This document shows positions 63 to 11,374 of a stretch of 11,597 bases of DNA, one piece after another; positions within the stretch are counted from its first letter, which is position 1, and each line of letters opens with the position of its first letter. The notes below the pieces were generated by a model. It did no database searches, was not told the DNA's origin, and saw only the letters and a list, made by a program, of their open reading frames with translations. The DNA is from a virus. Position numbers and translations under genes: made by a program. The DNA is taken from UHGV virus genome UHGV-0331195; one strand, written 5' to 3'.

Positions 63-139
63 CGGCACGTAGCGCAGCCTGGTAGCGCACCGTCATGGGG
101 TGTCGGGGGTCGGAGGTTCAAATCCTCTCGTGCCGACCA
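63..139 (+). tRNA. proL: tRNA-Pro, anticodon GGG
   Basis: 77-nt cloverleaf: acceptor stem CGGCACG/CGTGCCG, D-arm GCGC-AGCCTGGTA-GCGC, anticodon loop ATGGGGT (GGG), T-arm GGAGG-TTCAAAT-CCTCT, 3' CCA encoded. Matches my recollection of enterobacterial proL. Confidence 0.9.
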
Positions 140-177
140 AATCGCCCACCGGAAAGCACCGGATAAGACAGGGATAA

Positions 178-208
178 CCCGCTAATCACTTGATTGGCGG
201 GTTTTTTT
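178..208 (+). terminator. Rho-independent terminator after the tRNA (stem CCCGCTAATCA / TGATTGGCGGG, then T7)
   Basis: GC-rich hairpin followed by TTTTTTT at 202-208. Probably island-supplied sequence that restores tRNA 3' processing/termination at attL. Confidence 0.6.
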
Positions 209-316: not shown

Positions 317-347
317 ACCCTGTTTTTTCGTGTGGAATCATAGACAT

Positions 348-1589
348 ATGGCGAGAAAAACACACCCATTAACCACAGTGCAGATCAAAGCAGCCAGACC
401 AGCGCAAAAGGAGTACACCCTGCAGGACGGCGGAGGGCTTTTTCTCCTGGTCAAACCGTCTGGATCAAAACTCTGGAGATTTTCCTACTACCGACCATCG
501 GACAAAAAAAGAATATTGCTGAGTTTTGGATCGCTTGAAGATGTTTCCCTGGCTGATGCCAGAAAACGCCGTAGCGAGTACAGGACGTTAATCAGTGCCG
601 GAACTGACCCGCAGGACCACGAGAGGCAAAAAAGAGAGACAGAGGCCCGAAGACAAGGGAACACGTTCGAAAATGTGGCGGCGGCATGGTACCAGGTGAA
701 AATCAGCCAGAATCTGGCCCCCAACACGATTAAAGACATCTGGCGTTCGCTGGATAAATATGTATTCCCGTTCATCGGCAACACGCCAATAGATACCCTC
801 ACCGCCCGAAGGTTCGTTGAAGTGCTTACCCCCATCAAGGAGCGCGGCAACCTGGAAACACTCAAGCGGGTTTTACAGCGCGTTAATGAGGTAATGGATT
901 ACGCCGCCAACAGTGGGCTGATTGATGCCAATCCGGCTATGAATGTGCGTAAGGCGTTTCCCTCACCTGTAAAAAAACATATGCCAACAATCCGCCCCGA
1001 ACAGCTGCCGGAGCTTATGCAGGCTTTATCAGTATCGGCAACAGAACGGCAGACCAGATTACTGATTGAATGGCAGTTACTGACCGTAACCCGTCCCGCC
1101 GAAGCGTCATCAACGCGGTGGGATGAAATCAACCTGGACGCGAAGCAATGGACGATACCTGCCGGACGCATGAAGATGCGCAGGGATCACGTTATCCCGC
1201 TTTCCGGTCAGGCTATGGCGGTGCTGGAGGCCATGAAACCAATCAGCCACCACCGCAATTACGTTTTCCCAAGTCTGAAAGACCCACAGCAGCCGATGAA
1301 CAGCCAGACAGCTAACGCAGCATTGCGGCGTATGGGATTCGCTGGCGTGCTGGTGTCTCATGGATTACGCGCCATATTCAGCACAGCAGCGAACGAGGAA
1401 GGATTCGAGCCGGACGTAATAGAGGCGGCACTTGCCCACGTCGACACCAACGAAGTTAGACGGGCATACAACCGGAGCAACTATATAGAAAAACGCATCG
1501 TGCTGATGCGCTGGTGGGGCGAATTTGTCGAGGCTGCGGCGACGGGCGTAACCCTCGCCAGTGGTAAAAGGGGTATCCGAGCCGTGTAG
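348..1589 (+). CDS. int: Tyrosine-type site-specific integrase, P4/CP4-57 family
   Basis: ORF 330-1589; start chosen at ATG 348 (MARKTHPLT...). N-terminus (PLTTVQIKAARP...YTLQDGGGLFLLVKPSGSKLWRFSYY) matches the arm-binding domain signature I recall for P4-type integrases; C-terminus has HGLR and RAYNRSNY catalytic-region motifs. Adjacent to a tRNA. Confidence 0.85.
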   Translation: MARKTHPLTTVQIKAARPAQKEYTLQDGGGLFLLVKPSGSKLWRFSYYRPSDKKRILLSFGSLEDVSLADARKRRSEYRTLISAGTDPQDHERQKRETEARRQGNTFENVAAAWYQVKISQNLAPNTIKDIWRSLDKYVFPFIGNTPIDTLTARRFVEVLTPIKERGNLETLKRVLQRVNEVMDYAANSGLIDANPAMNVRKAFPSPVKKHMPTIRPEQLPELMQALSVSATERQTRLLIEWQLLTVTRPAEASSTRWDEINLDAKQWTIPAGRMKMRRDHVIPLSGQAMAVLEAMKPISHHRNYVFPSLKDPQQPMNSQTANAALRRMGFAGVLVSHGLRAIFSTAANEEGFEPDVIEAALAHVDTNEVRRAYNRSNYIEKRIVLMRWWGEFVEAAATGVTLASGKRGIRAV

Positions 1590-2085: not shown

Positions 2086-2292
2086 ATGGAAGCAATCAGA
2101 AAAATTATCTTTCGCCAGGAAGTAAAAAAAATTATCCACATCAAGGCAGACAGCACGCTGCAAAGCATGATCAACGCCGGAGAATTTCCGCAGGGTTTTC
2201 GCGTTGGTTTACGCCGTCGCGGATGGTATGAGGATGATGTGTTGTCCTGGCAGAAAGAACGCGAAGAGGAAGCACGCGGAACGGCTGCTTAA
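2086..2292 (+). CDS. alpA: AlpA-family phage transcriptional regulator
   Basis: 68 aa; ...RQEVKKIIHIKADSTLQSMINAGEFPQGFRVGLRRRGWYEDDVLSW fits the AlpA pattern as I recall it (R..EV...ST.....G.FP...G.R..W.E..V..W). Same orientation as int, as in Gram-negative PICIs. Confidence 0.7.
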   Translation: MEAIRKIIFRQEVKKIIHIKADSTLQSMINAGEFPQGFRVGLRRRGWYEDDVLSWQKEREEEARGTAA

Positions 2293-2318
2293 CGGGTATC
2301 ACAGATATGACAAACACG

Positions 2319-2352
2319 AAAAAAGCGGCCCCGATATGGAGCCGCCTTTCTG
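2319..2352. terminator. Bidirectional hairpin GCGGC-ccccgatatgga-GCCGC; terminator for the minus-strand RHH transcript (T-run on minus strand)
   Basis: On the minus strand the hairpin is followed by TTTTTT; on the plus strand it follows alpA with only a weak T-tract. Confidence 0.5.
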
Positions 2353-2440
2353 AACAATTAACCCGCTGCGCCTTATGTGTATGTGATCCCAAACATAAGC
2401 ACGGGGATGATAGCCGCTATCAGGCTGGTGGGCAATGCAA

Positions 2441-2629
2441 TCAGTCTGGTTCAGTTCGTTGCCATACCTGCAATGAGCGCTTTTCCCTGTACTCTTTAAG
2501 GAATTGCTCAAGGGCAAAAGCACATGGTGCGAATCTTTCTGATTCATGCTCTATCTTTCTGCGCCGTCTTTTCCGTGCCGGTGATAATGTTTTGGTCAAT
2601 TCTTTATCGGTCATTGTGTTGTCCTGCAT
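2441..2629 (-). CDS. Small basic hypothetical protein, second gene of the RHH transcript
   Basis: 62-aa ORF (or 57 aa from ATG 2614) between the RHH gene and the minus-strand terminator; contains RKRRRRK. No clear RBS. Confidence 0.3.
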   Translation of the reverse strand: MQDNTMTDKELTKTLSPARKRRRRKIEHESERFAPCAFALEQFLKEYREKRSLQVWQRTEPD

Positions 2630-2671
2630 AGCAATGCGCCGTAATACCTCACACCACGGCGCTGATAGTGA

Positions 2672-2851
2672 TTATTCTGATTCTTTGGCCTTGCGGCGCT
2701 GGCGGCGTTTGATCTCGCCTTCAAGTGCCGAAACGATAAATTGCCCTGTACTTTCGCCATCTTCCTTTAAATTTTCTACAGCATCAGCTATTGCGTGTGG
2801 TACTCGAGCCTCAAGCTTTTTGGATTTTGCATTAACTGCTTTTGTTGCCAT
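2672..2851 (-). CDS. Ribbon-helix-helix (Arc/CopG/MetJ-type) DNA-binding protein, candidate island repressor
   Basis: 59 aa from ATG 2851 with RBS GAGGAAA 7 nt upstream on the minus strand. MATKAVNAKSKKLEARVPHAIADAVENLKEDGESTGQFIVSALEGEI matches the RHH beta-strand plus two-helix pattern. Divergent from the replication operon, with operator repeats between. Confidence 0.65.
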   Translation of the reverse strand: MATKAVNAKSKKLEARVPHAIADAVENLKEDGESTGQFIVSALEGEIKRRQRRKAKESE

Positions 2852-2872
2852 ATCTGATTTCCTCGTTATTAG

Positions 2873-2952
2873 GTGGCTGACAGTATACACACAAGAAAAC
2901 GGAAAAACACTATTGACGTGGCTGACACCCGTTACTAATATAGTGGCTGACA
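2873..2952. promoter_or_regulatory. Divergent promoter/operator: three direct GTGGCTGACA repeats (2873-2882, 2918-2927, 2943-2952) over a rightward promoter TTGACG (2913-2918), 17 nt, TAATAT (2936-2941)
   Basis: Three exact 10-mers within 80 bp; the middle copy lies in the spacer of a near-consensus sigma70 promoter facing the Icd-like/primase operon. A possible leftward promoter (TTGTGT...TAATAA on the minus strand) overlaps the first repeat. Confidence 0.55.
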
Positions 2953-3045
2953 CCTTTATTAAGGTAATCGATGAAAAGACAAAGCCCCGCAAGTGTCGTT
3001 ACCACTCGCAGGGCTTCTAACCAACAACGTAAACTAGGAGCCGTT

Positions 3046-3603
3046 ATGGTTGCTGTAAATCATATACCACACCTTGTACACACACAAACGGCCTTTGTGT
3101 GGCGTTTTCTGGCCCTGAATATCGGAGAAAAAAACCGCTTGATCGCCACCAGCAAAAATGGCTATGATTCCCGCGCACCTCATAAAACGGGTGTCGGGAT
3201 TAGCCTCCTGAAAACAACTGAAGCGCACAGCACGCGCCCCGCGTGTTTTTTTGTGCCGCATAGTCACACCTTATCAATGGTGGGCTGTACGGGGGCGGAG
3301 CAATCCGCGCCGGTTTCTTCAGTGTCCGGTAAGGCTAACCCTGTACAGTCCGCCACCAGCGAAATTAGCCTTTTGCGTGGCGGTTATCTTAACCACACTG
3401 AGGAGGCTGCCAACATGGCTACTATCCCTACCCTTGTACATTCTCAAACCGCATTTATCTGGCGCTTTATCATCTTTGGCGCGTCAGAATCTCAAATCAT
3501 CCACGTAACCGCCTGGACGGAACGCGAAGCGCGTAGCCGTTGCCCGTCCGGTTGTATTGCGGTATTCGCCGCCCGTATTCGTCAGGGGGTGTGCCATGCC
3601 TGA
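3046..3603 (+). CDS. Icd-like (host cell-division inhibitor family) ORF with in-frame tandem duplication; start uncertain (2971, 3046 or 3415)
   Basis: Single frame 2971-3603 with no stop. AGGAG RBS before ATG 3046. N-terminal motif LVHTQTAFVWRF recurs as LVHSQTAFIWRF at the second copy; degenerate TEAHSTRPAC versus TEREARSRCP. Confidence 0.4.
   Translation: MVAVNHIPHLVHTQTAFVWRFLALNIGEKNRLIATSKNGYDSRAPHKTGVGISLLKTTEAHSTRPACFFVPHSHTLSMVGCTGAEQSAPVSSVSGKANPVQSATSEISLLRGGYLNHTEEAANMATIPTLVHSQTAFIWRFIIFGASESQIIHVTAWTEREARSRCPSGCIAVFAARIRQGVCHA
3415..3603 (+). CDS. Icd-like protein, second and better conserved copy, 62 aa
   Basis: Strong SD GAGGAGG (3400-3406) before ATG 3415. MATIPTLVHSQTAFIWRFIIFGAS...TEREARSRCP...FAARIRQGVCHA fits my recollection of Icd-like small proteins in P4-like/PICI elements. 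Confidence 0.5.
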   Translation: MATIPTLVHSQTAFIWRFIIFGASESQIIHVTAWTEREARSRCPSGCIAVFAARIRQGVCHA

Positions 3604-3916
3604 TATGTCAAATTACCAGTACCTGATTAATCCGCATTTTAACTGTGAGCATGATATTGCTAAAAAAGTTTATTCCGCTGCGGATGGGGCTACTGACAAT
3701 ATATCAATGGGTGTTGCGTCAATTGGTAGCCTGATGTGGCATGCGTCAGAAAATAAGGAATATGACGAAAATACCATGCGCATTGATATGGGTAATATCG
3801 GTTTGTTACTGGCAATGCTTGGACATTTTGATATTTCGTTACGGTGCACCATTGAAAATGCCACAGATGCATTAAATGCTATAAAGAAAGCGAATACTGA
3901 TTCAAATCGGGGATAA
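3596..3916 (+). CDS. Hypothetical protein, 106 aa
   Basis: ATG 3596 overlaps the preceding stop (ATGCCTGA), RBS AGGGGG 6 nt upstream. No family recognised. Confidence 0.5.
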   Translation: MPDMSNYQYLINPHFNCEHDIAKKVYSAADGATDNISMGVASIGSLMWHASENKEYDENTMRIDMGNIGLLLAMLGHFDISLRCTIENATDALNAIKKANTDSNRG

Positions 3917-3922
3917 ATAATC

Positions 3923-4222
3923 ATGAGAACGTATTTATCTGGCTTTACTGCCAGCGGCCCCGCTCGGCCTGAAATCCGCCCCGGAGATATTTTCAGAGAT
4001 AACTACGGTGGCGTTGTTGAGATTAAAGGCGTGGCAGAACGGCGCATTACCTACCGCCGTGAAGGCTACGAATATGATTGCGTGATGCCTGTTTATCAGT
4101 TCCGGCGTGATTTTTCTCTGGTACAGGCAGCGCCCCGCAGTAAACCAACCAGCAGGGAGAAAGCACGCGCCAATATTCAGGAAATAAGAAAGATGTTGAA
4201 TGTATTCAGGGGTAAAAAATGA
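3923..4222 (+). CDS. Small protein, possible DUF4222 family
   Basis: 99 aa; PGDIFRDNYGGVVEIKGVAERRITYRREGYEYDC resembles the DUF4222 pattern I recall from P4-like prophages. Stop overlaps the primase start (ATGA). Confidence 0.45.
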   Translation: MRTYLSGFTASGPARPEIRPGDIFRDNYGGVVEIKGVAERRITYRREGYEYDCVMPVYQFRRDFSLVQAAPRSKPTSREKARANIQEIRKMLNVFRGKK

Positions 4223-5967
4223 AACTGGCACCGAACGTAAAAAAACAGCCACGCGGAATAAAACACAAAGACACAGAGGTAATTATCTTTGCGGGTAGTG
4301 ATGCCTGGTCACACGCGGAACAATGGCAGGAGCAGGATGGCCCCGCATCCGGCGATAATGTGCCGCCTGTGTGGCTTGGGCCAAATCAGCTTGCCGAACT
4401 TGATGCACTGAAAATTGTTCCGGATGGAAAAAAACGCGTAAGGCTGTACCAGGCCGGAGAACTGGATTTGGTGGAGACCAAAAAGATTGGTCAGAAGCTG
4501 GCGGCGGCAGATATTCAGGACGCAAATTTTTACCCCGAAGGAATGCACGTCCAGAAGTGTGAAAACTGGCGGCGCTATCTGAATGCTGAGCGTGAAAATA
4601 TTGCCGCAGGGCTTACCATGCCGGAGCAGAAAAATACGCAACTGGCACAAATGGCAGACAGTGAGCGCGCGCAGCTGCTTGCCGAGCGCTTTGATGGCGT
4701 TTGTGTACATCCGGAAAGTGAAATCGTTCACGTATGGCGCGGCGGGGTATGGTGTCCGATCAGCACAATGGAGCTGAGCCGCGAAATGGTGGCGATCTAT
4801 TCAGAGCACAGGGCCACTTTCAGCAAACGCGTGATCAATAACGCCGTTGAAGCGTTAAAAGTTATTGCCGAACCAATGGGGGAGCCGTCCGGCGATTTGC
4901 TGCCGTTCGCCAATGGTGCGCTTGACCTGAAAACGGGGGAATTTTCCCCGCACACGCCGGAGAACTGGATCACCACGCACAACGGCATTGAGTACACGCC
5001 ACCAGCACCTGGGGAGAACATCCGCGATAACGCGCCAAACTTTCATAAATGGCTTGATCACGCAGCCGGAAAAGACCAGCGCAAGATGATGCGTATATGT
5101 GCCGCGCTGTACATGATTATGGCGAACCGGTACGACTGGCAGATGTTTATTGAGGCCACCGGAGACGGCGGGAGCGGTAAAAGTACATTCACACACATCG
5201 CCAGCCTTCTGGCAGGGAAACAGAACACGGTAAGCGCTGAAATGACATCGCTTGATGATGCTGGTGGACGTGCGCAGGTTGTCGGGAGTCGTCTTATCGT
5301 CCTGGCTGACCAGACGAAATATACAGGCGAAGGAACGGGCATCAAGAAAATCACGGGCGGCGACCCCGTGGAAATTAACCCGAAATACGAAAAGCGTTTC
5401 ACGGCTGTAATCAGGGCGGTGGTGCTGGCGACCAACAATAACCCGATGATATTCACCGAACGGGCCGGAGGTGTGGCACGTCGTCGCGTGATTTTCCGCT
5501 TCGACAATATCGTCAGTGAGGCCGAAAAAGACAGGGAGCTACCGGAAAAGATTGCGGCTGAAATCCCTGTCATTATCCGCCGATTGCTGGCGAACTTTAC
5601 CGACCCTGAGAAGGCACGGGCTTTACTACTGGAACAGCGTGACGGTGATGAAGCACTGGCAATAAAGCAACAGACGGATCCGGTTATTGAGTTTTGCCAG
5701 TTCCTGAATTTTCTGGAGGAAGCGCGCGGCCTGATGATGGGTGGCGGTGGCGATTCAGTGAAGTACACGACCAGAAACAGCCTTTACCGCGTCTATCTGG
5801 CGTTTATGGCATACGCAGGCAGGAGCAAACCGCTAAACGTAAATGACTTTGGCAAGGCTATGAAGCCAGCCGCGAAAGTTTACGGACATGAATATATTAC
5901 GCGGAAAGTTAAGGGAGTAACGCAGACTAACGCAATAACAACAGACGATTGCGACGCGTTTTTATAA
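4219..5967 (+). CDS. Replication protein: P4-alpha-like primase / SF3 helicase
   Basis: 582 aa; Walker A GDGGSGKST (aa 315-323, nt 5161-5187) and Walker B-like RLIVLAD, consistent with the phage/plasmid primase P4-family C-terminal domain. Followed by an iteron origin. Confidence 0.75.
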   Translation: MKLAPNVKKQPRGIKHKDTEVIIFAGSDAWSHAEQWQEQDGPASGDNVPPVWLGPNQLAELDALKIVPDGKKRVRLYQAGELDLVETKKIGQKLAAADIQDANFYPEGMHVQKCENWRRYLNAERENIAAGLTMPEQKNTQLAQMADSERAQLLAERFDGVCVHPESEIVHVWRGGVWCPISTMELSREMVAIYSEHRATFSKRVINNAVEALKVIAEPMGEPSGDLLPFANGALDLKTGEFSPHTPENWITTHNGIEYTPPAPGENIRDNAPNFHKWLDHAAGKDQRKMMRICAALYMIMANRYDWQMFIEATGDGGSGKSTFTHIASLLAGKQNTVSAEMTSLDDAGGRAQVVGSRLIVLADQTKYTGEGTGIKKITGGDPVEINPKYEKRFTAVIRAVVLATNNNPMIFTERAGGVARRRVIFRFDNIVSEAEKDRELPEKIAAEIPVIIRRLLANFTDPEKARALLLEQRDGDEALAIKQQTDPVIEFCQFLNFLEEARGLMMGGGGDSVKYTTRNSLYRVYLAFMAYAGRSKPLNVNDFGKAMKPAAKVYGHEYITRKVKGVTQTNAITTDDCDAFL

Positions 5968-6787: not shown

Positions 6788-6809
6788 GCCGGAGTAATCC
6801 GGCTTTTTT
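6788..6809 (+). terminator. Rho-independent terminator GCCGGAGtaaTCCGGC then T6
   Basis: Hairpin plus TTTTTT. Nearly identical to the terminator at 9064-9086. Confidence 0.65.
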
Positions 6810-7021: not shown

Positions 7022-7228
7022 ATGGCTGAAGAGAAAAAAGGCGGTGTTTCGGTGTACATAAGCCCCGACATCGTGAAGGCGCTCAAGGAACGCCACCAGC
7101 AGAACGTAAAAGCAGGCATTGCGGCAGGACTTGATCCGCTGGCGATGGTTGAGCCGTCAACAGGCTGGCAGGTACGCGCCTATTTACGCGCGGCGCTGGG
7201 TATGAATCAGGTTCACGGGGGTGAATAA
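7022..7228 (+). CDS. Small hypothetical protein, first gene of head operon
   Basis: 68 aa, RBS AAGAGGAA, stop overlaps the capsid gene start (TAATG). No similarity to lambda gpW, which has the same length, that I can see. Confidence 0.5.
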   Translation: MAEEKKGGVSVYISPDIVKALKERHQQNVKAGIAAGLDPLAMVEPSTGWQVRAYLRAALGMNQVHGGE

Positions 7229-8283
7229 TGACAGTAAAAGCAATAGCACTTAACACTAACCAGCTTTTTGCGTACCTGAATCGCGAGGATATTGCGGAAT
7301 TTAAATTCAGTCCGCTGTTTACCGCGCTGTTTTTCCCGAACGTGGCGACATTCAACACACAGGACATCATGTTAGATAACCTGGATATTGAAGAAGTCAC
7401 TATGTCGGCGTTTTGTTCGCCTATGGTGGGTAGCCAGGTTCAGCGCGATAAAGGGTACGAAACAAGCATTATTCGCCCTGGCTACACGAAGCCAAAACAC
7501 GAAATCGATCCATTAAAAACAATAATGCGCATGGCTGGAGAAGATCCAGCACAGCTTAACGACCCTACCTACCGCCGTATGCGCCTGATTACTGGCAACA
7601 TGCGCCGCCAGATAAACGCCATTAAAGCGCGCGTGGAATGGCTGGCGGTAAATGCGGTAACGACCGGAAAAAACATCATTGAGGGCGAAGGCATAGAGCG
7701 CTATGAAATCGACTGGAAGATACCGGAAAAAAACATCATAGAGCAGGCCGACGGTAAAAAATGGTCAGAGCAGGACAAAGACATACACGACCCAATCTAT
7801 GACATTGAGCTATACGCAGATCAGGCAGGTTGCCCCGCAAACGTCATGATTATGGGCGTTGATGTATGGCGCATGTTACGCAGCTTTAAAAAATTCCGTG
7901 AACTGTACGATCTCTCCCGTGGTTCAGAATCCGCCGCAGAGCTGGCATGTAAAAACCTGGGCGAAGTGGTGAGCTTTAAAGGCTATCTTGGTGATCTGGC
8001 CCTTATCGTCTATTCCGGCAAATACACTGACAGCGACGGCACAGAAAAATATTTCCTTGAGCCTGATTTGCTGGTCCTGGGCAACACCAACAATAAAGGG
8101 CTGGTGGCCTATGGTGCGATTATGGAACAGGAAGCGGTAAGAACGGGCGCAACGCAAAACATGTTTTACCCGAAAAACTGGATTGAGGACGGCGATCCGG
8201 CGATTGAGTACGTGCAGACGCACAGCGCACCGCAGCCGGTTCCGGCAGATATTCGCAAATTTGTTACCGTCAAAATTGGTTAA
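7228..8283 (+). CDS. Major capsid protein, phage lambda gpE family (divergent)
   Basis: 351 aa. Shares with recalled lambda gpE: FKF(S/D)PLF...LFF, (T/R)PGY(V/T)KPKHE, EDP..L.DP.YRR.R.I..NMR, WS..DK...DP..DIE.YA, RSFK, RGS.S, LG..VS(F/Y)KG..GD.A.(I/V)VYSG.Y, LVLGNT...GL..YG, .YPKNW...GDPA.E, SAP. Estimated 35-45% identity. Confidence 0.85.
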   Translation: MTVKAIALNTNQLFAYLNREDIAEFKFSPLFTALFFPNVATFNTQDIMLDNLDIEEVTMSAFCSPMVGSQVQRDKGYETSIIRPGYTKPKHEIDPLKTIMRMAGEDPAQLNDPTYRRMRLITGNMRRQINAIKARVEWLAVNAVTTGKNIIEGEGIERYEIDWKIPEKNIIEQADGKKWSEQDKDIHDPIYDIELYADQAGCPANVMIMGVDVWRMLRSFKKFRELYDLSRGSESAAELACKNLGEVVSFKGYLGDLALIVYSGKYTDSDGTEKYFLEPDLLVLGNTNNKGLVAYGAIMEQEAVRTGATQNMFYPKNWIEDGDPAIEYVQTHSAPQPVPADIRKFVTVKIG

Positions 8284-8295
8284 CGGGGGGATTCT

Positions 8296-8631
8296 ATGGA
8301 CACTCCATACATTGAGTTATTTGCAGGCAGTCAGCAGGTATCCACGACGCTGGTACATTTTGCCGCTGATGCTGGCGTTATTCAGGAATTTACCCCGCTG
8401 ATGCTGGCGGACAATGGCGAGTTTAAGCCGTGGGATGGTCAGGAATCTGGCAAGGCTGTTTATCTGACTTCGTACCCCGTGGACACGTCAAAGCAGAAAT
8501 CAGCACAGTGTTACAAGACGGGGATATTTAATATCGCCGCCGTAAACTGGCCTGAGAGCGCCGACACTGACGCGAAAAAATGCGCCGCCTTTGCGGGTTC
8601 TGGCGTATCCGTTCAGCCGCTGGCGCGATAA
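8296..8631 (+). CDS. Head decoration protein, lambda gpD family (divergent)
   Basis: 111 aa; TPLMLADNGEFKPWDG...YKTGIFN...VNWPESADTDAKKCAAFAG...SV parallels recalled gpD (TPLMLD...WDG...YKSGTF...VLWPEA..DETKKRTAFAG...SI). Gene order E then D is the reverse of lambda. Confidence 0.7.
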   Translation: MDTPYIELFAGSQQVSTTLVHFAADAGVIQEFTPLMLADNGEFKPWDGQESGKAVYLTSYPVDTSKQKSAQCYKTGIFNIAAVNWPESADTDAKKCAAFAGSGVSVQPLAR

Positions 8632-8643
8632 GCAGGGGAAACG

Positions 8644-9057
8644 ATGGCAACGAATGAAAGCATCATGGCGCTACCGCTGGCGAGTAAATTTAAAGCAGAA
8701 GCGCGGGCAATGGCTGACAGAGGTTTATCAACCTACGAGGCCGTATATCAACTCAACAAACTGGAAGAACAGGACAAGCCGCGCGCTGATGCGATTATGG
8801 CGCTTCATGAACATAACGACTATCAGCCGCTGTTACGTGCAATGGCAAACGTGCCATGTATTAGCGTCGATAATGCTCGTGAAATCCTGAACATGACCAT
8901 AGAGCAGGAGCGCCCAAAGGTTGCACCAGAGCTTACCGCAGCCTTTGAAAACTTTATGGACATGCACAGCCCGCAAGCCGTATCAGCTGGCATGGCGTAC
9001 GATGGCAGAAACCAGGGCGATGACGGCGACATCGATCGCATACTGAAAACCATCTGA
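8644..9057 (+). CDS. Hypothetical head-module protein, 137 aa, acidic C-terminus
   Basis: RBS GGGGA 5 nt upstream. No convincing similarity to lambda FI/FII/W from memory. Confidence 0.5.
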   Translation: MATNESIMALPLASKFKAEARAMADRGLSTYEAVYQLNKLEEQDKPRADAIMALHEHNDYQPLLRAMANVPCISVDNAREILNMTIEQERPKVAPELTAAFENFMDMHSPQAVSAGMAYDGRNQGDDGDIDRILKTI

Positions 9058-9063
9058 GACAAG

Positions 9064-9086
9064 GCCGGAGAAATCCGGCTTTTTTT
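9064..9086 (+). terminator. Rho-independent terminator GCCGGAGaaaTCCGGC then T7, immediately before cosQ
   Basis: Hairpin plus TTTTTTT; 22 of 23 nt identical to the terminator at 6788-6809. Confidence 0.65.
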
Positions 9087-9088
9087 AC

Positions 9089-9262
9089 GGGTCCTTTCCG
9101 GCATATGGACCCGTTACGGGGCGGCGACCTCGCGGTTTTTCGCTATTTATGAGCCTTTTCAGGGGGGTGGTGGTGGTTTTGTTGTTTGATCTATCTTTAT
9201 GAATGAAAAGGGAAAGATGCAAGCAATACACCAACCTGAAGCAGTAATTAAGTTGGTGTATT
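9089..9262 (+). other. cos site 1 (lambda-type): cosQ-like GGGTCCTTTCCGG (9089-9101), cosN 12-nt cohesive-end sequence GGGCGGCGACCT (9119-9130), divergent cosB region with hairpin AATACACCAAC/GTTGGTGTATT (9225-9262)
   Basis: CGTTACG|GGGCGGCGACCTCGCGG-TTTTCGCTATTTATGA matches my memory of the lambda right-end/left-end junction for about 35 nt, then diverges with no CGTTTCC-type R elements. Sits directly upstream of the Nu1-like gene, as in lambda. Confidence 0.75.
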
Positions 9263-9263
9263 A

Positions 9264-9806
9264 ATGAAATCTCATCTGATGAACAAAAAAAACATGGCGA
9301 AAAGCTGCCGTGTAAGTGCGACAGCGTTCGACAAGTGGGGAGTAACTCCCGTTGAGCGTAAAGGCCGTGAGGCGTTTTATGATGTTGCCAGCGTGATAGA
9401 AAATAGGGTTAACAATGCAATTAGCCAGCTTATAAACGACAAAGGCGAGATTGACGATGATGAACTTTTACGAGTCAGGATCAGATTACTGACAGCACAG
9501 GCAGAGGCGCAGGAACTTAAAAACGATCGCGATCGCGGTGACGTGATTGATACTGAGTTTTGCCTGTACGCGCTTTCAAAGCTGGCGAGTCAGATTTCAT
9601 CAATCATGGACAGCCTCCCGCTTACTATGCAAAGGAGCTTCCCACAGATTACCCCCGCCATGCTGGATAGGCTTAAAAGGGAAGTGGTTAAAGCCTGTAA
9701 TGCCAGTGCCAGAGTTGCCGACAACCTCCCACAGATACTGGCTGATTACTTGAAAGAAACAACCGGAAACGTACCGGAAAAGTTGCTACAGAAGAAAGGC
9801 GAGTAA
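9264..9806 (+). CDS. Terminase small subunit, lambda gpNu1 family; start uncertain (9264, 9279 or 9294)
   Basis: C-terminal two-thirds LLTAQAEAQELKNDRDRGDVIDTEFCLYALSKLASQISSIMDSLPLTMQRSFPQI...LDRLKREVVKACN closely parallels recalled Nu1 (LTRAQADAQELKNARDSAEVVETAFCTFVLSRIAGEIASILDGLPLSVQRRFPEL...FLKRDIIKAMN). N-terminal DNA-binding region is much more divergent. Confidence 0.8.
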   Translation: MKSHLMNKKNMAKSCRVSATAFDKWGVTPVERKGREAFYDVASVIENRVNNAISQLINDKGEIDDDELLRVRIRLLTAQAEAQELKNDRDRGDVIDTEFCLYALSKLASQISSIMDSLPLTMQRSFPQITPAMLDRLKREVVKACNASARVADNLPQILADYLKETTGNVPEKLLQKKGE

Positions 9807-9824: not shown

Positions 9825-10030
9825 ACAAAACTGAGAAACGACATGAAAGCGTCATAAATCGCCATTTTAGATGATTACCGTGTCGTTTCTTTTTATTGTG
9901 TATCTATTTAAAAACAAATAGTTATGTTCGAGAAGTACCGACATGCTTTTTCCAGAAAAATTTTCATAAACAGATAAAAACCGCGAGGTCGCCGCCCCGT
10001 AACGGGCCATAATTCCAGGAAGGACCCGAC
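9825..10030 (-). other. cos site 2, inverted: cosQ-like (9998-10030), cosN GGGCGGCGACCT on minus strand (9986-9997), lambda-like cosB with R-type elements GAAACGACA (9835-9843) / TGTCGTTTC (9882-9890)
   Basis: The reverse complement of 9825-10030 aligns with the recalled lambda left end over about 170 nt (cosN, TTTATGAAAATTTT, CTTCT.G.ACATAACT..TGTTTTTA..TA, AAAAAGAAACGACA, TGTCGTTTC). 31 nt around cosN are identical to cos site 1 in inverted orientation. cosB abuts the terS stop tail-to-tail. Confidence 0.7.
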
Positions 10031-10061: not shown

Positions 10062-10343
10062 ATGACAGAAGCCGAAATACTGGGATTAATCCGCCGCGTT
10101 GCCGGAATCAGCCAGCAGGTTGACGAACAGGCCACGCAGCCGGACAGCGTGACCGCTGAAAATTATGCGCGTGTTGTTGCGGAGGTGATGCGCCGTGATG
10201 GTATAGAACTTAATGGCGTGGATATGCGCAACATACGAACCAGAGTTCTTGAGTTGCTGGCCTACCGTCGCCGCGTGGAGATGTATCGGGAGAAGGAGAA
10301 AATAACGTACCACTGGAAGAAGCCGGAGCGGTTGCGGCGGTAA
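10062..10343 (+). CDS. Hypothetical protein, 93 aa
   Basis: ORF with GGGGG 5 nt upstream of ATG; Arg-rich C-terminus. No family recognised. Confidence 0.45.
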   Translation: MTEAEILGLIRRVAGISQQVDEQATQPDSVTAENYARVVAEVMRRDGIELNGVDMRNIRTRVLELLAYRRRVEMYREKEKITYHWKKPERLRR

Positions 10344-11146: not shown

Positions 11147-11290
11147 CAGGCGTAAATCCCGATATGGTGATCCCCATATCGGGGAACATCCACCAGCTTA
11201 AAAACGAATGAGCGAAAAAAATCCAGGTAGAATTATGGAAGTCGCTAGGGCAATCGCCGTTTAAATTGTGTATTTTTTCAGCAAATTATT

Positions 11291-11313
11291 TTAGTTATAC
11301 GTTTGGTTATACG
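11291..11313. repeat. Integrase arm-type sites near attR: TTAGTTATACG (11291-11301) and TTGGTTATACG (11303-11313)
   Basis: Same 11-mer as at 262-284, about 60 bp from the attR core. Confidence 0.55.
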
Positions 11314-11374
11314 GTTTAAAAGTTGAATCGATAATATTGATTAAAATCATACTGTTACACGCTCAATTAAACTA

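Follow-up and report, generated by a model that had tools for sequence, protein, structure and literature searches.

Two arrangements are already known by which satellites redirect the packaging of their helper phages. Staphylococcal pathogenicity islands (SaPIs) of the pac type do so with a small terminase subunit (TerS) of their own, and cos-type phage-inducible chromosomal islands (PICIs) from Gram-negative hosts do so with Rpp, for which the TerS of the helper is still needed. The DNA analysed here, virus genome UHGV-0331195 of 11,597 nt (called the window in its full length), is a Gram-negative PICI in which an orphan gene, terS, lies behind a lambda-like cos site, cos1. The locus points to a third arrangement, namely a full-length, cos-type TerS of the Nu1 family with a private cosB in the slot of rpp.

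The TerS of pac-type SaPI1 and SaPIbov1 is likewise an orphan of a satellite; as reported in PMC6739421 from Ubeda 2007, it pairs with the large terminase subunit (TerL) of the helper and recognises satellite DNA only. In the same account, packaging is of the headful (pac) kind, the protein belongs to an unrelated TerS family, and a further protein, Ppi, blocks the helper TerS. The window is similar in that an orphan terS and a cognate-type cosB1, the latter absent from phage records, stand together on a satellite, but the island is cos-type, its TerS is of the Nu1 family, and no Ppi equivalent was identified.

EcCICFT073, an island of the Rpp type, is not mobilised by a helper deleted for terS. 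The known mechanism of Gram-negative PICIs is heteromerisation with the helper TerS (PMC6739421), on which Rpp, having no TerL-binding tail, depends (PMC6739421, PMC9026076). The presence of a TerS gene in certain Gram-negative PICIs was recorded in 2018 (PMC6092414), and a literature search found no study characterising the Nu1-like TerS of these islands.

The reading favoured here, at a probability of about 0.6, is that the island TerS binds cosB1 and recruits the helper TerL, which would make it the cos-type equivalent of the SaPI TerS and another solution beside Rpp. An earlier, sequence-only reading had proposed a specificity-swap small terminase, divergent from lambda Nu1 in its DNA-binding region and close to it in its C-terminus, that brings the helper gpA to the island cos. 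The layout expected of such a protein is present, with an orphan TerS, a private cosB1 and lambda-identical cosQ and cosN; conservation of the tail that binds lambda gpA is not.

Identity and distribution of terS

The terS product (Table 1) matches the Pfam family Phage_Nu1 (PF07471) over residues 33-148 with 82.6 bits (cut-off 30; E 3.2e-23), and lambda Nu1 over residues 6-166 in BLASTP (36% identity, E 1e-33). The gene lies downstream of cosN and cosB, its ATG (9264) standing 145 bp from base 1 of cosN (9119). The overlapping downstream TerL gene of phages has no counterpart: no TerL open reading frame (ORF) occurs anywhere in the window, the inverted cos2 is found instead, and terS is therefore an orphan. 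The ORFs and profile matches of the window likewise include no portal, tail or lysis genes.

Homologues fall into two groups, E. coli/Shigella proteins of 76-99% identity and 169-170-aa proteins of Enterobacter/Citrobacter with 56-59%. Among 50,697 phage records, the best overall identity of a phage TerS to the island protein is at most 44%. All inspected contexts that reach upstream show capsid-E, decoration, AlpA-like, cos and TerS with no adjacent TerL, and several of the satellites sit inside capsid or portal genes of lambdoid prophages, such satellites being helper-embedded PICIs (PMC10111431). The TerS lineage is satellite-specific, homologues of 56-99% identity standing in the contexts inspected in satellites, after capsid-decoration genes. 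Of 5,426 complete E. coli genomes, at least 487 (~9%) contain the kilobase from cos1 through terS to cos2 at 80% coverage or more; O157:H7, O145 and Nissle 1917 are among them. Between variants, dN/dS is 0.17-0.22 in every domain, the tail included; the gene is under purifying selection in all of them.

A three-part mosaic protein

The domains of Nu1 were taken as DNA-binding domain (DBD; 1-68), linker (69-99), self-assembly (100-140) and gpA-binding (141-181) regions (PMC9026076). Identity of the island TerS to Nu1 is 29-35% with indels in the DBD, 43% in the linker, 51% in the self-assembly region and 29% in the gpA-binding tail, differences that are individually not strong statistically at ~40-50 residues per domain. 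Divergence is not uniform, yet both ends are divergent and only the middle is clearly lambda-like; of the expected pairing of a divergent N-terminus with a close C-terminus, the first half holds and the second does not.

Nor is the N-terminus idiosyncratic, as had been supposed. Over 61 residues it is 52% identical to gp1 of phage N15 without gaps (E 2e-22), as against 38% with five gaps to lambda Nu1 (E 1e-4). N15 gp1 has the closest phage DBD, shares its length and indel pattern, and has a near-identical recognition helix (SATAFDKWGV in the island, SVQAFDKWGV in N15). By these alignments the DBD is of the N15 gp1 lineage. A sequence search of the PDB did not retrieve the Nu1 DBD (1J9I) and gave no chain at E <0.03, its six weak matches including neither Rpp nor a terminase, which shows the divergence of the DBD from lambda and nothing more.

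The self-assembly core is the most phage-like part, with 51% identity to lambda and 66% to phage PhiR5_1. The tail (residues 117-180) aligns without gaps to Nu1 131-180 (36% identity, 74% similarity) and is closest to the Nu1 homologue of PhiR5_1 (55%). It is thus homologous to the lambda tail but not close to it, being about as far from lambda as the N-terminus (29-36%). P156 and Y162 (P-x5-Y) do not vary among 27 island homologues and correspond to P170 and Y176 of lambda; with the ungapped alignment they mark this segment as a candidate TerL-binding tail. Domain by domain, the protein aligns as a mosaic of three parts and stands in a separate lineage. With lambda Nu1 it shares PF07471 and the three-part domain order. 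N15 gp1 differs in having a lambda-type tail (80% identical to Nu1) and in being followed by its own TerL.

A conserved 13-aa C-terminal extension, TGNVPEKLLQKKGE (9762-9803, residues 167-180), occurs in all 180-aa island TerS; neither the Nu1 homologues of phages nor the 169-aa satellite TerS of Enterobacter/Citrobacter have it.

The private cosB1

Likeness of cos1 to lambda runs to ~bp 34 (…GCTATTTATGA) and then ends; because cosQ and cosN of the helper are kept, a lambda-like large terminase could nick and terminate there. As the sequence-only reading had it, cosB1 is without lambda R elements, no lambda R sequence being found in it, and GGTGGTGGTGG is present at 9166-9176. The segment 9150-9270 has no blastn match in the phage collection.

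Two blocks of cosB1 are conserved. Block A, in an alignment of 10 loci, has the form GGTGGTGGTKTTGTTGTT (bp 50-68); in 10 satellites it hardly varies and keeps its spacing from cosN, even as their TerS fall to 56% identity and their cohesive ends differ. Its position is that of R3 in lambda (bp 50-65) and in N15 (bp 48-59), where spacing from cosN is known to be critical (PMC9026076, PMC4669245). Block B, of the form AATACACC[A/C]AC (bp 107-118), is found in most of the 10 satellites regardless of hairpin potential, the exceptions being L024, which reads AAATATACCAAC, and L019, where it is not conserved. It occupies the position of lambda R2 (bp 109-124) and persists inside the most variable segment of the cassette (bp 76-145, 76-80% identity). 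Exactly 145 bp separate cosN from the ATG in all six different upstream sequences of the E. coli type (from 11 sampled loci), even with local divergence of 10-25%; in distant satellites the spacing is 148-150 bp.

Similarity between the two blocks is, in the one locus compared (L024), no better than chance for G/T-rich sequence, so that the case for them is one of position and conservation. A repeated R-element was considered and rejected: the pattern GKTGGTGKWTT matches only at 9169, 9225 (minus strand) and 9252, but was derived from these same sites and is circular. Satellites of the TerS lineage (L023-L026) have at least five different 12-nt cohesive ends, among them GGGCGGCAGACG and GGGCGTCAGCGT, with blocks A and B constant, which suggests that cosN has been re-matched to different helpers.

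In comparison with N15, whose cosB is of the Monarch type, the G/T-rich R3 lies at the same coordinates, bp 48-59 (GAGGTTGTTGTT in N15, GGTGGTGGTGGT in the island, 7/12 in register), and TTGTTGTTT(A/G)ATC is common to both at an offset of 9 bp. The critical hexamer GTTGTT (bp 54-59) of N15 reads GGTGGT in the island, with mismatches at bp 55 and 58, so that R3 is related and not identical. The N15 cosB leaves only 88 bp to the start codon, and a further conserved block stands in the island where R2 would lie. Lambda, with cosB in the order R3-I1-R2-R1, resembles the island in its conserved elements at the R3 and R2 positions and in having an inverted repeat directly before the start of TerS, but its R sequences are different, 190 bp separate cosN from the start codon, and a gpA gene follows.

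The hairpin before the start codon

The hairpin with an 11-bp stem that the sequence-only reading had described at the first ATG exists: a perfect inverted repeat (9225-9235 / 9252-9262) ends one base before 9264 and folds as RNA at -14.5 to -16.5 kcal/mol (z -1.85; 11/200 shuffles fold as well). It had been taken as a sign of translational control, or of a true start downstream at 9279 or 9294, the structure occluding the ribosome-binding site and start. Compatible with this are the perfect stem of the window lineage (11 bp, -14.5 kcal/mol), in which the Shine-Dalgarno-like GGTG, five nt ahead of the ATG, is buried, and the lack of a sigma-70-like promoter near terS in a promoter scan.

The z-score is modest, however, and the stem decays in relatives. 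A right arm that complements the left one in full occurs in the window lineage alone; the arm reads GTGGGGATATT or GTTGGGATATT in other E. coli variants, where three uncompensated changes weaken the fold to -7.4, -2.9 and -7.6 kcal/mol, and it is absent from the Enterobacter/Citrobacter satellites, which form no stem (-1.5 kcal/mol). No covariation was found across relatives, the left arm alone being kept, as sequence, and the variants gain better Shine-Dalgarno motifs (GGGGA, GAGGA) instead. The lambda R2/R1 inverted repeat, in the equivalent place and much stronger (-37.6 kcal/mol), is a pair of protein-binding sites (PMC9026076). Since the hairpin decays without compensatory changes, translational control is unsupported, and occlusion of the start by this structure is improbable. 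Rather than a translational switch, the hairpin is read here as a conserved element at the R2 position joined by an R1-like copy confined to the lineage; the right arm would be either such a copy or a lineage-specific feature.

A downstream start is also unlikely. All relatives keep the ATG at 9264, which RefSeq uses, and residues H4-L5; the 169-aa distant relatives of Enterobacter/Citrobacter have Leu as residue 6, which rules out a start at 9279 there, and they have a strong GAGGA Shine-Dalgarno upstream of the start equivalent to 9264.

Exchange of the tail between islands

The window and variant L011 are 94-97% identical in nucleotides over the stretch that runs from cosN to the end of codon 126 and 73% thereafter, and among island variants tails are 71-78% identical, as against 94-97% upstream. 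Synonymous divergence rises from dS 0.08-0.26 upstream of codon 127 to ~1.0 in the tail at the same dN/dS, which indicates recombination and not relaxed selection. The breakpoint, at codons ~122-127 (Nu1 ~136-141), coincides with the start of the gpA-binding segment (Nu1 141-181), which was delimited by biochemistry. Comparable mosaicism occurs between phages sampled, as in lambda-21 chimeric and other mosaic lambdoid TerS, but there the genes are linked to their own TerL, whereas the island mosaic evolves inside satellites.

In the phages sampled, the type of TerS tail and the N-terminal 48 residues of TerL vary together, and different islands probably have different types of helper. A clean match of tail type to helper type is suggestive only: every island tail, also that of a variant embedded in a lambda-type helper, is closer to PhiR5_1 (44-51%) than to lambda (29-39%). 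Being the least lambda-like part of the protein (29-36% identity), closest to PhiR5_1 and swapped among islands, the tail does not support recruitment of lambda gpA as it had been stated in the sequence-only reading.

In E. coli Jnd12 (L016, 1766000-1790000), a TerS-type island splits the portal gene (gene B) of a prophage that has, in essence, the Nu1, gpA and cos of lambda. In this natural helper-satellite pair, the island cosB1 differs from the cosB of the helper prophage.

TerS and Rpp in one slot

In a sister island (L003, E. coli 2014C-3307, 3058-3800), a gene for a 144-aa Rpp-like protein replaces terS while the flanking cos1 and cos2 are unchanged; it contains the R21/T22 motif, and its start lies at bp 102, as published. 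The slot thus takes either of two cassettes, TerS or Rpp. As in EcCICFT073-type PICIs, the slot lies between cos1, with lambda-like cosQ and cosN and a non-phage cosB, and an inverted cos2; Rpp has a winged helix-turn-helix (wHTH) N-terminus and the island TerS a predicted one, and the presumed outcome is the same, redirection of helper packaging to the island cosB.

The two proteins are otherwise unlike. BLASTP finds no detectable similarity between the island TerS and the Rpp-like protein of the sister island (E 3.4). The latter resembles the lambda-type DBD of Nu1 (E 4e-6) and not the N15 type, for which reason the island TerS was rejected as an ancestor of Rpp as far as the DBD is concerned. 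Rpp proteins (RppA/B/C) have 135-153 aa and no TerL-binding tail, whereas the island TerS is not truncated, with 180 aa, a full, selected tail and the 13-aa extension. The rpp start lies at bp 102 from cosN and that of terS at bp 146; cosB has (ACC)4 at bp 54-65 in the Rpp type, the inverse of the island (GGT)4 at bp 48-59, and the recognition helices are unrelated.

The main rival to the favoured reading, though an unlikely one, is an Rpp-like mode in which the island TerS does not engage TerL and forms mixed oligomers with the helper TerS through its core, so that recognition of the helper cosB is poisoned and the complex is retargeted to cosB1, TerL being brought by helper tails. Heteromerisation is the described mechanism of Gram-negative PICIs (PMC6739421), terS lies exactly in the rpp slot, the core and not the tail is most phage-like, and the island tail departs from the lambda-identical helper Nu1 tail in the natural pair (39% identity). 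Rpp, however, binds the DBD region of TerS (residues 1-98) and not the core (PMC6739421), and it has no detectable similarity to the island protein. A tail with an invariant P-x5-Y and dN/dS of ~0.2, swapped as a module at the TerL-binding boundary, would be hard to explain if it were idle. As Rpp without a tail needs the helper TerS, the retention of a selected tail here argues for a different, TerL-direct mode.

Proposed mechanism and points against it

In the favoured reading, direct recruitment of the helper TerL, a satellite-private cosB1 takes the place of the helper cosB. The orphan TerS would bind cosB1 through its predicted winged helix of the N15 lineage, with block A as main contact and block B as an R2-like accessory, and would then oligomerise through the lambda-like helical core. 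Its C-terminal tail would dock the helper TerL, and island concatemers would be cut and packaged instead of, or alongside, helper DNA. The tail, a module open to exchange on its own, would fit the cassette to various types of helper TerL.

Several observations weigh against this reading. Identity of the TerS tail to those of the phages sampled is only 29-49%, and the tail of the island in the sole natural helper-satellite pair is 39% identical to its helper counterpart, so that direct docking on TerL is not guaranteed. An inverted block B matches block A at best in 8/12 positions (L024, the sole locus compared), a score equalled by 54% of composition-preserving shuffles. No consensus for integration host factor (IHF) lies between blocks A and B (116 matches in the scan, 117 expected), and a lambda-like I1 site in cosB1 is not supported. 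Because N15 terminase packages lambda DNA (PMC4669245), divergence from Nu1 is by itself no proof of a new specificity, and an N15-type DBD need not exclude the helper cosB. The TerS-encoding E. coli PICIs IHE3034 and 18098 gave no transfer under the conditions of 2018 (PMC6092414). The AlphaFold2 model of TerS (27-sequence alignment) has an order of secondary structures that fits a wHTH, but with low confidence (pLDDT 58), and a Foldseek search of the PDB gave the wHTH proteins MerR, SoxR, BldC, RacA and Xis as top matches, none significant (best E 0.2); the model is too weak for fold assignment and the MerR-type matches are suggestive only. Binding to blocks A and B and to TerL is, finally, predicted from sequence.

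The inverted cos2

The cosB of cos2 reaches to 9825, 19 bp from the terS stop. Its R2 and R1 form an inverted repeat (I4), an IHF-like site with one mismatch stands at the I1 position, and the stretch R3-I1 is identical to the cosB of an O157-type prophage. The best phage match is PhiR5_1 (82.9% over 150 bp), whose TerS tail is also the closest to that of the island. The two cos sites form an inverted repeat (I1; 9088-9159 / 9957-10028) of 72 nt, 82% complementary.

With a complete phage-type R3-I1-R2-R1 cosB, 83% identical to PhiR5_1, cos2 allows the thought that terS was captured from a phage and plays no part of its own in packaging, and that the helper terminase packages the island via cos2, or via cosN alone; PICI cos plasmids are indeed transferred at a low level by lambda alone (PMC6092414). 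This is very improbable. All TerS domains are under purifying selection, the lineage is satellite-specific with no phage TerS above 44% identity, many variants with cos1 and terS lack cos2, and EcCICFT073, which has two cos sites, needs cos1 and not cos2 for transfer (PMC6092414, PMC6739421).

The island and its other features

The window is a Gram-negative PICI. Over its full length it is 99.7% identical to the segment of E. coli NCTC9112 between yejM/tRNA-Pro and yejO, and it has an integrase, an alpA-like regulator, a primase-replicase, a lambda-like cos, a size of ~11 kb and a dedicated att site (Table 1). The remaining genes are icd/ash remnants and those for a DUF4222 protein, PerC, a gpE-like capsid and a gpD-like decoration protein, a 137-aa protein, TerS and a 93-aa protein. 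The gene order is that of EcCICFT073 and other Gram-negative PICIs (PMC6092414).

Table 1. Coordinates of features of the window; bp are counted from base 1 of cosN of cos1.
Feature	Position	Strand	Sequence or remark
Island insertion site	tRNA-Pro 63-139		between yejM and yejO
int (integrase)	330-1589		
HTH/AlpA-like gene	2086-2292		
D5/P4-type primase	4219-5967		
Intrinsic terminator-like hairpin	9064-9086	+	GCCGGAGAAATCCGGC then T7; closes the capsid/decoration/137-aa operon directly before cos1
cosQ of cos1	9089-9101	+	GGGTCCTTTCCGG; identical to lambda cosQ (alignment with lambda right end)
cosN of cos1	9119-9130	+	12-nt cohesive end GGGCGGCGACCT, lambda-identical; base 1 = 9119
cosB1 block A	9166-9186	+	GGTGGTGGTGGTTTTGTTGTT, bp 48-68; proposed primary TerS binding site
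cosB1 block B	9225-9235	+	AATACACCAAC, bp 107-117; hairpin left arm; proposed accessory, inverted R2-like site
Hairpin right arm	9252-9262	+	GTTGGTGTATT, bp 134-144; weak Shine-Dalgarno-like GGTG five nt upstream of ATG
terS, orphan Nu1-family small terminase	9264-9806	+	180 aa; RefSeq "terminase small subunit" WP_000835281.1
TerS DNA-binding domain	residues 1-66		predicted N15-type wHTH
TerS self-assembly core	residues ~67-126		lambda-like, helical
TerS tail	residues ~127-180		predicted exchangeable TerL-docking tail, with 13-aa island-specific extension
cosB of cos2, phage type	9825-9948	-	R1 9825-9843, R2 9881-9899, IHF-consensus-like 9912-9924, R3 ~9931-9946
cosN of cos2	9986-9997	-	GGGCGGCGACCT on minus strand, base 1 = 9997; cosQ2 10015-10027

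The island has its own lambda gpE-like major capsid (PF03864, E 3e-48) and gpD-like decoration (PF02924) genes at 7228-8631, and no portal, protease or scaffold gene. PICI capsid genes of such type are, according to the literature, dispensable for transfer. The 137-aa protein upstream of cos1 (8644-9057) has no Pfam match; in other variants its slot holds a 127-aa regulator of the AlpA-family/HTH type (PF05930). The 93-aa ORF just past cos2 (10062-10343) is kept in TerS-type and Rpp-type islands and has no family match.

The terminator-like hairpin before cos1 folds at -14.6 kcal/mol and is absent from the list of a consensus terminator/promoter scan. Near-identical hairpins of the form GCCGGAG[T/A]AATCCGGCTTTTTT occur at 6788-6809 (after PerC; a 95% identical copy), 9064-9085 and 1930-1951. 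The stretch 2300-3600, from the AlpA-like gene to that for the DUF4222 protein, has only overlapping spurious ORFs, RefSeq marking icd-like and ash-family pseudogene fragments, and looks decayed. Near both island ends lies a direct repeat of 37 nt (249-285 / 11278-11314; 84% identical, TTAGTTATACG twice), which may represent arm-type sites of the integrase or att-associated sites at the island boundaries.

Implications

As far as can be told, the mosaic anatomy of TerS, the two blocks of cosB conserved where R3 and R2 would lie, the breakpoint before the tail and the allelic slot shared by TerS and Rpp are new, and remain variations on known themes. Murialdo and Feiss (2022) proposed that the helper TerS is required solely as a source of the TerL-binding tail (PMC9026076); if this is true, TerS-type islands should transfer from a helper deleted for terS.

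A wider reading, held tentatively and at less than even odds, is that cosB1-terS is a portable, satellite-private specificity cassette that frees the island from dependence on the helper small terminase. A fixed DBD of the N15 lineage and blocks A and B would travel together across satellites of Enterobacteriaceae, with cosN re-matched to each helper and the tail swapped at the domain boundary, and TerS-type and Rpp-type cassettes would be interchangeable solutions, the one TerL-direct and the other TerS-dependent. If this is true, these islands would be a natural experiment on the coupling of DNA recognition to TerL anchoring in lambda-like terminases. Blocks A and B, at R3 and R2 coordinates with different sequence, bear on which bases and spacings of cosB anchor TerL at cosN, and the exchangeable tails and varying cohesive ends of the satellites bear on the limits of their host and helper range.

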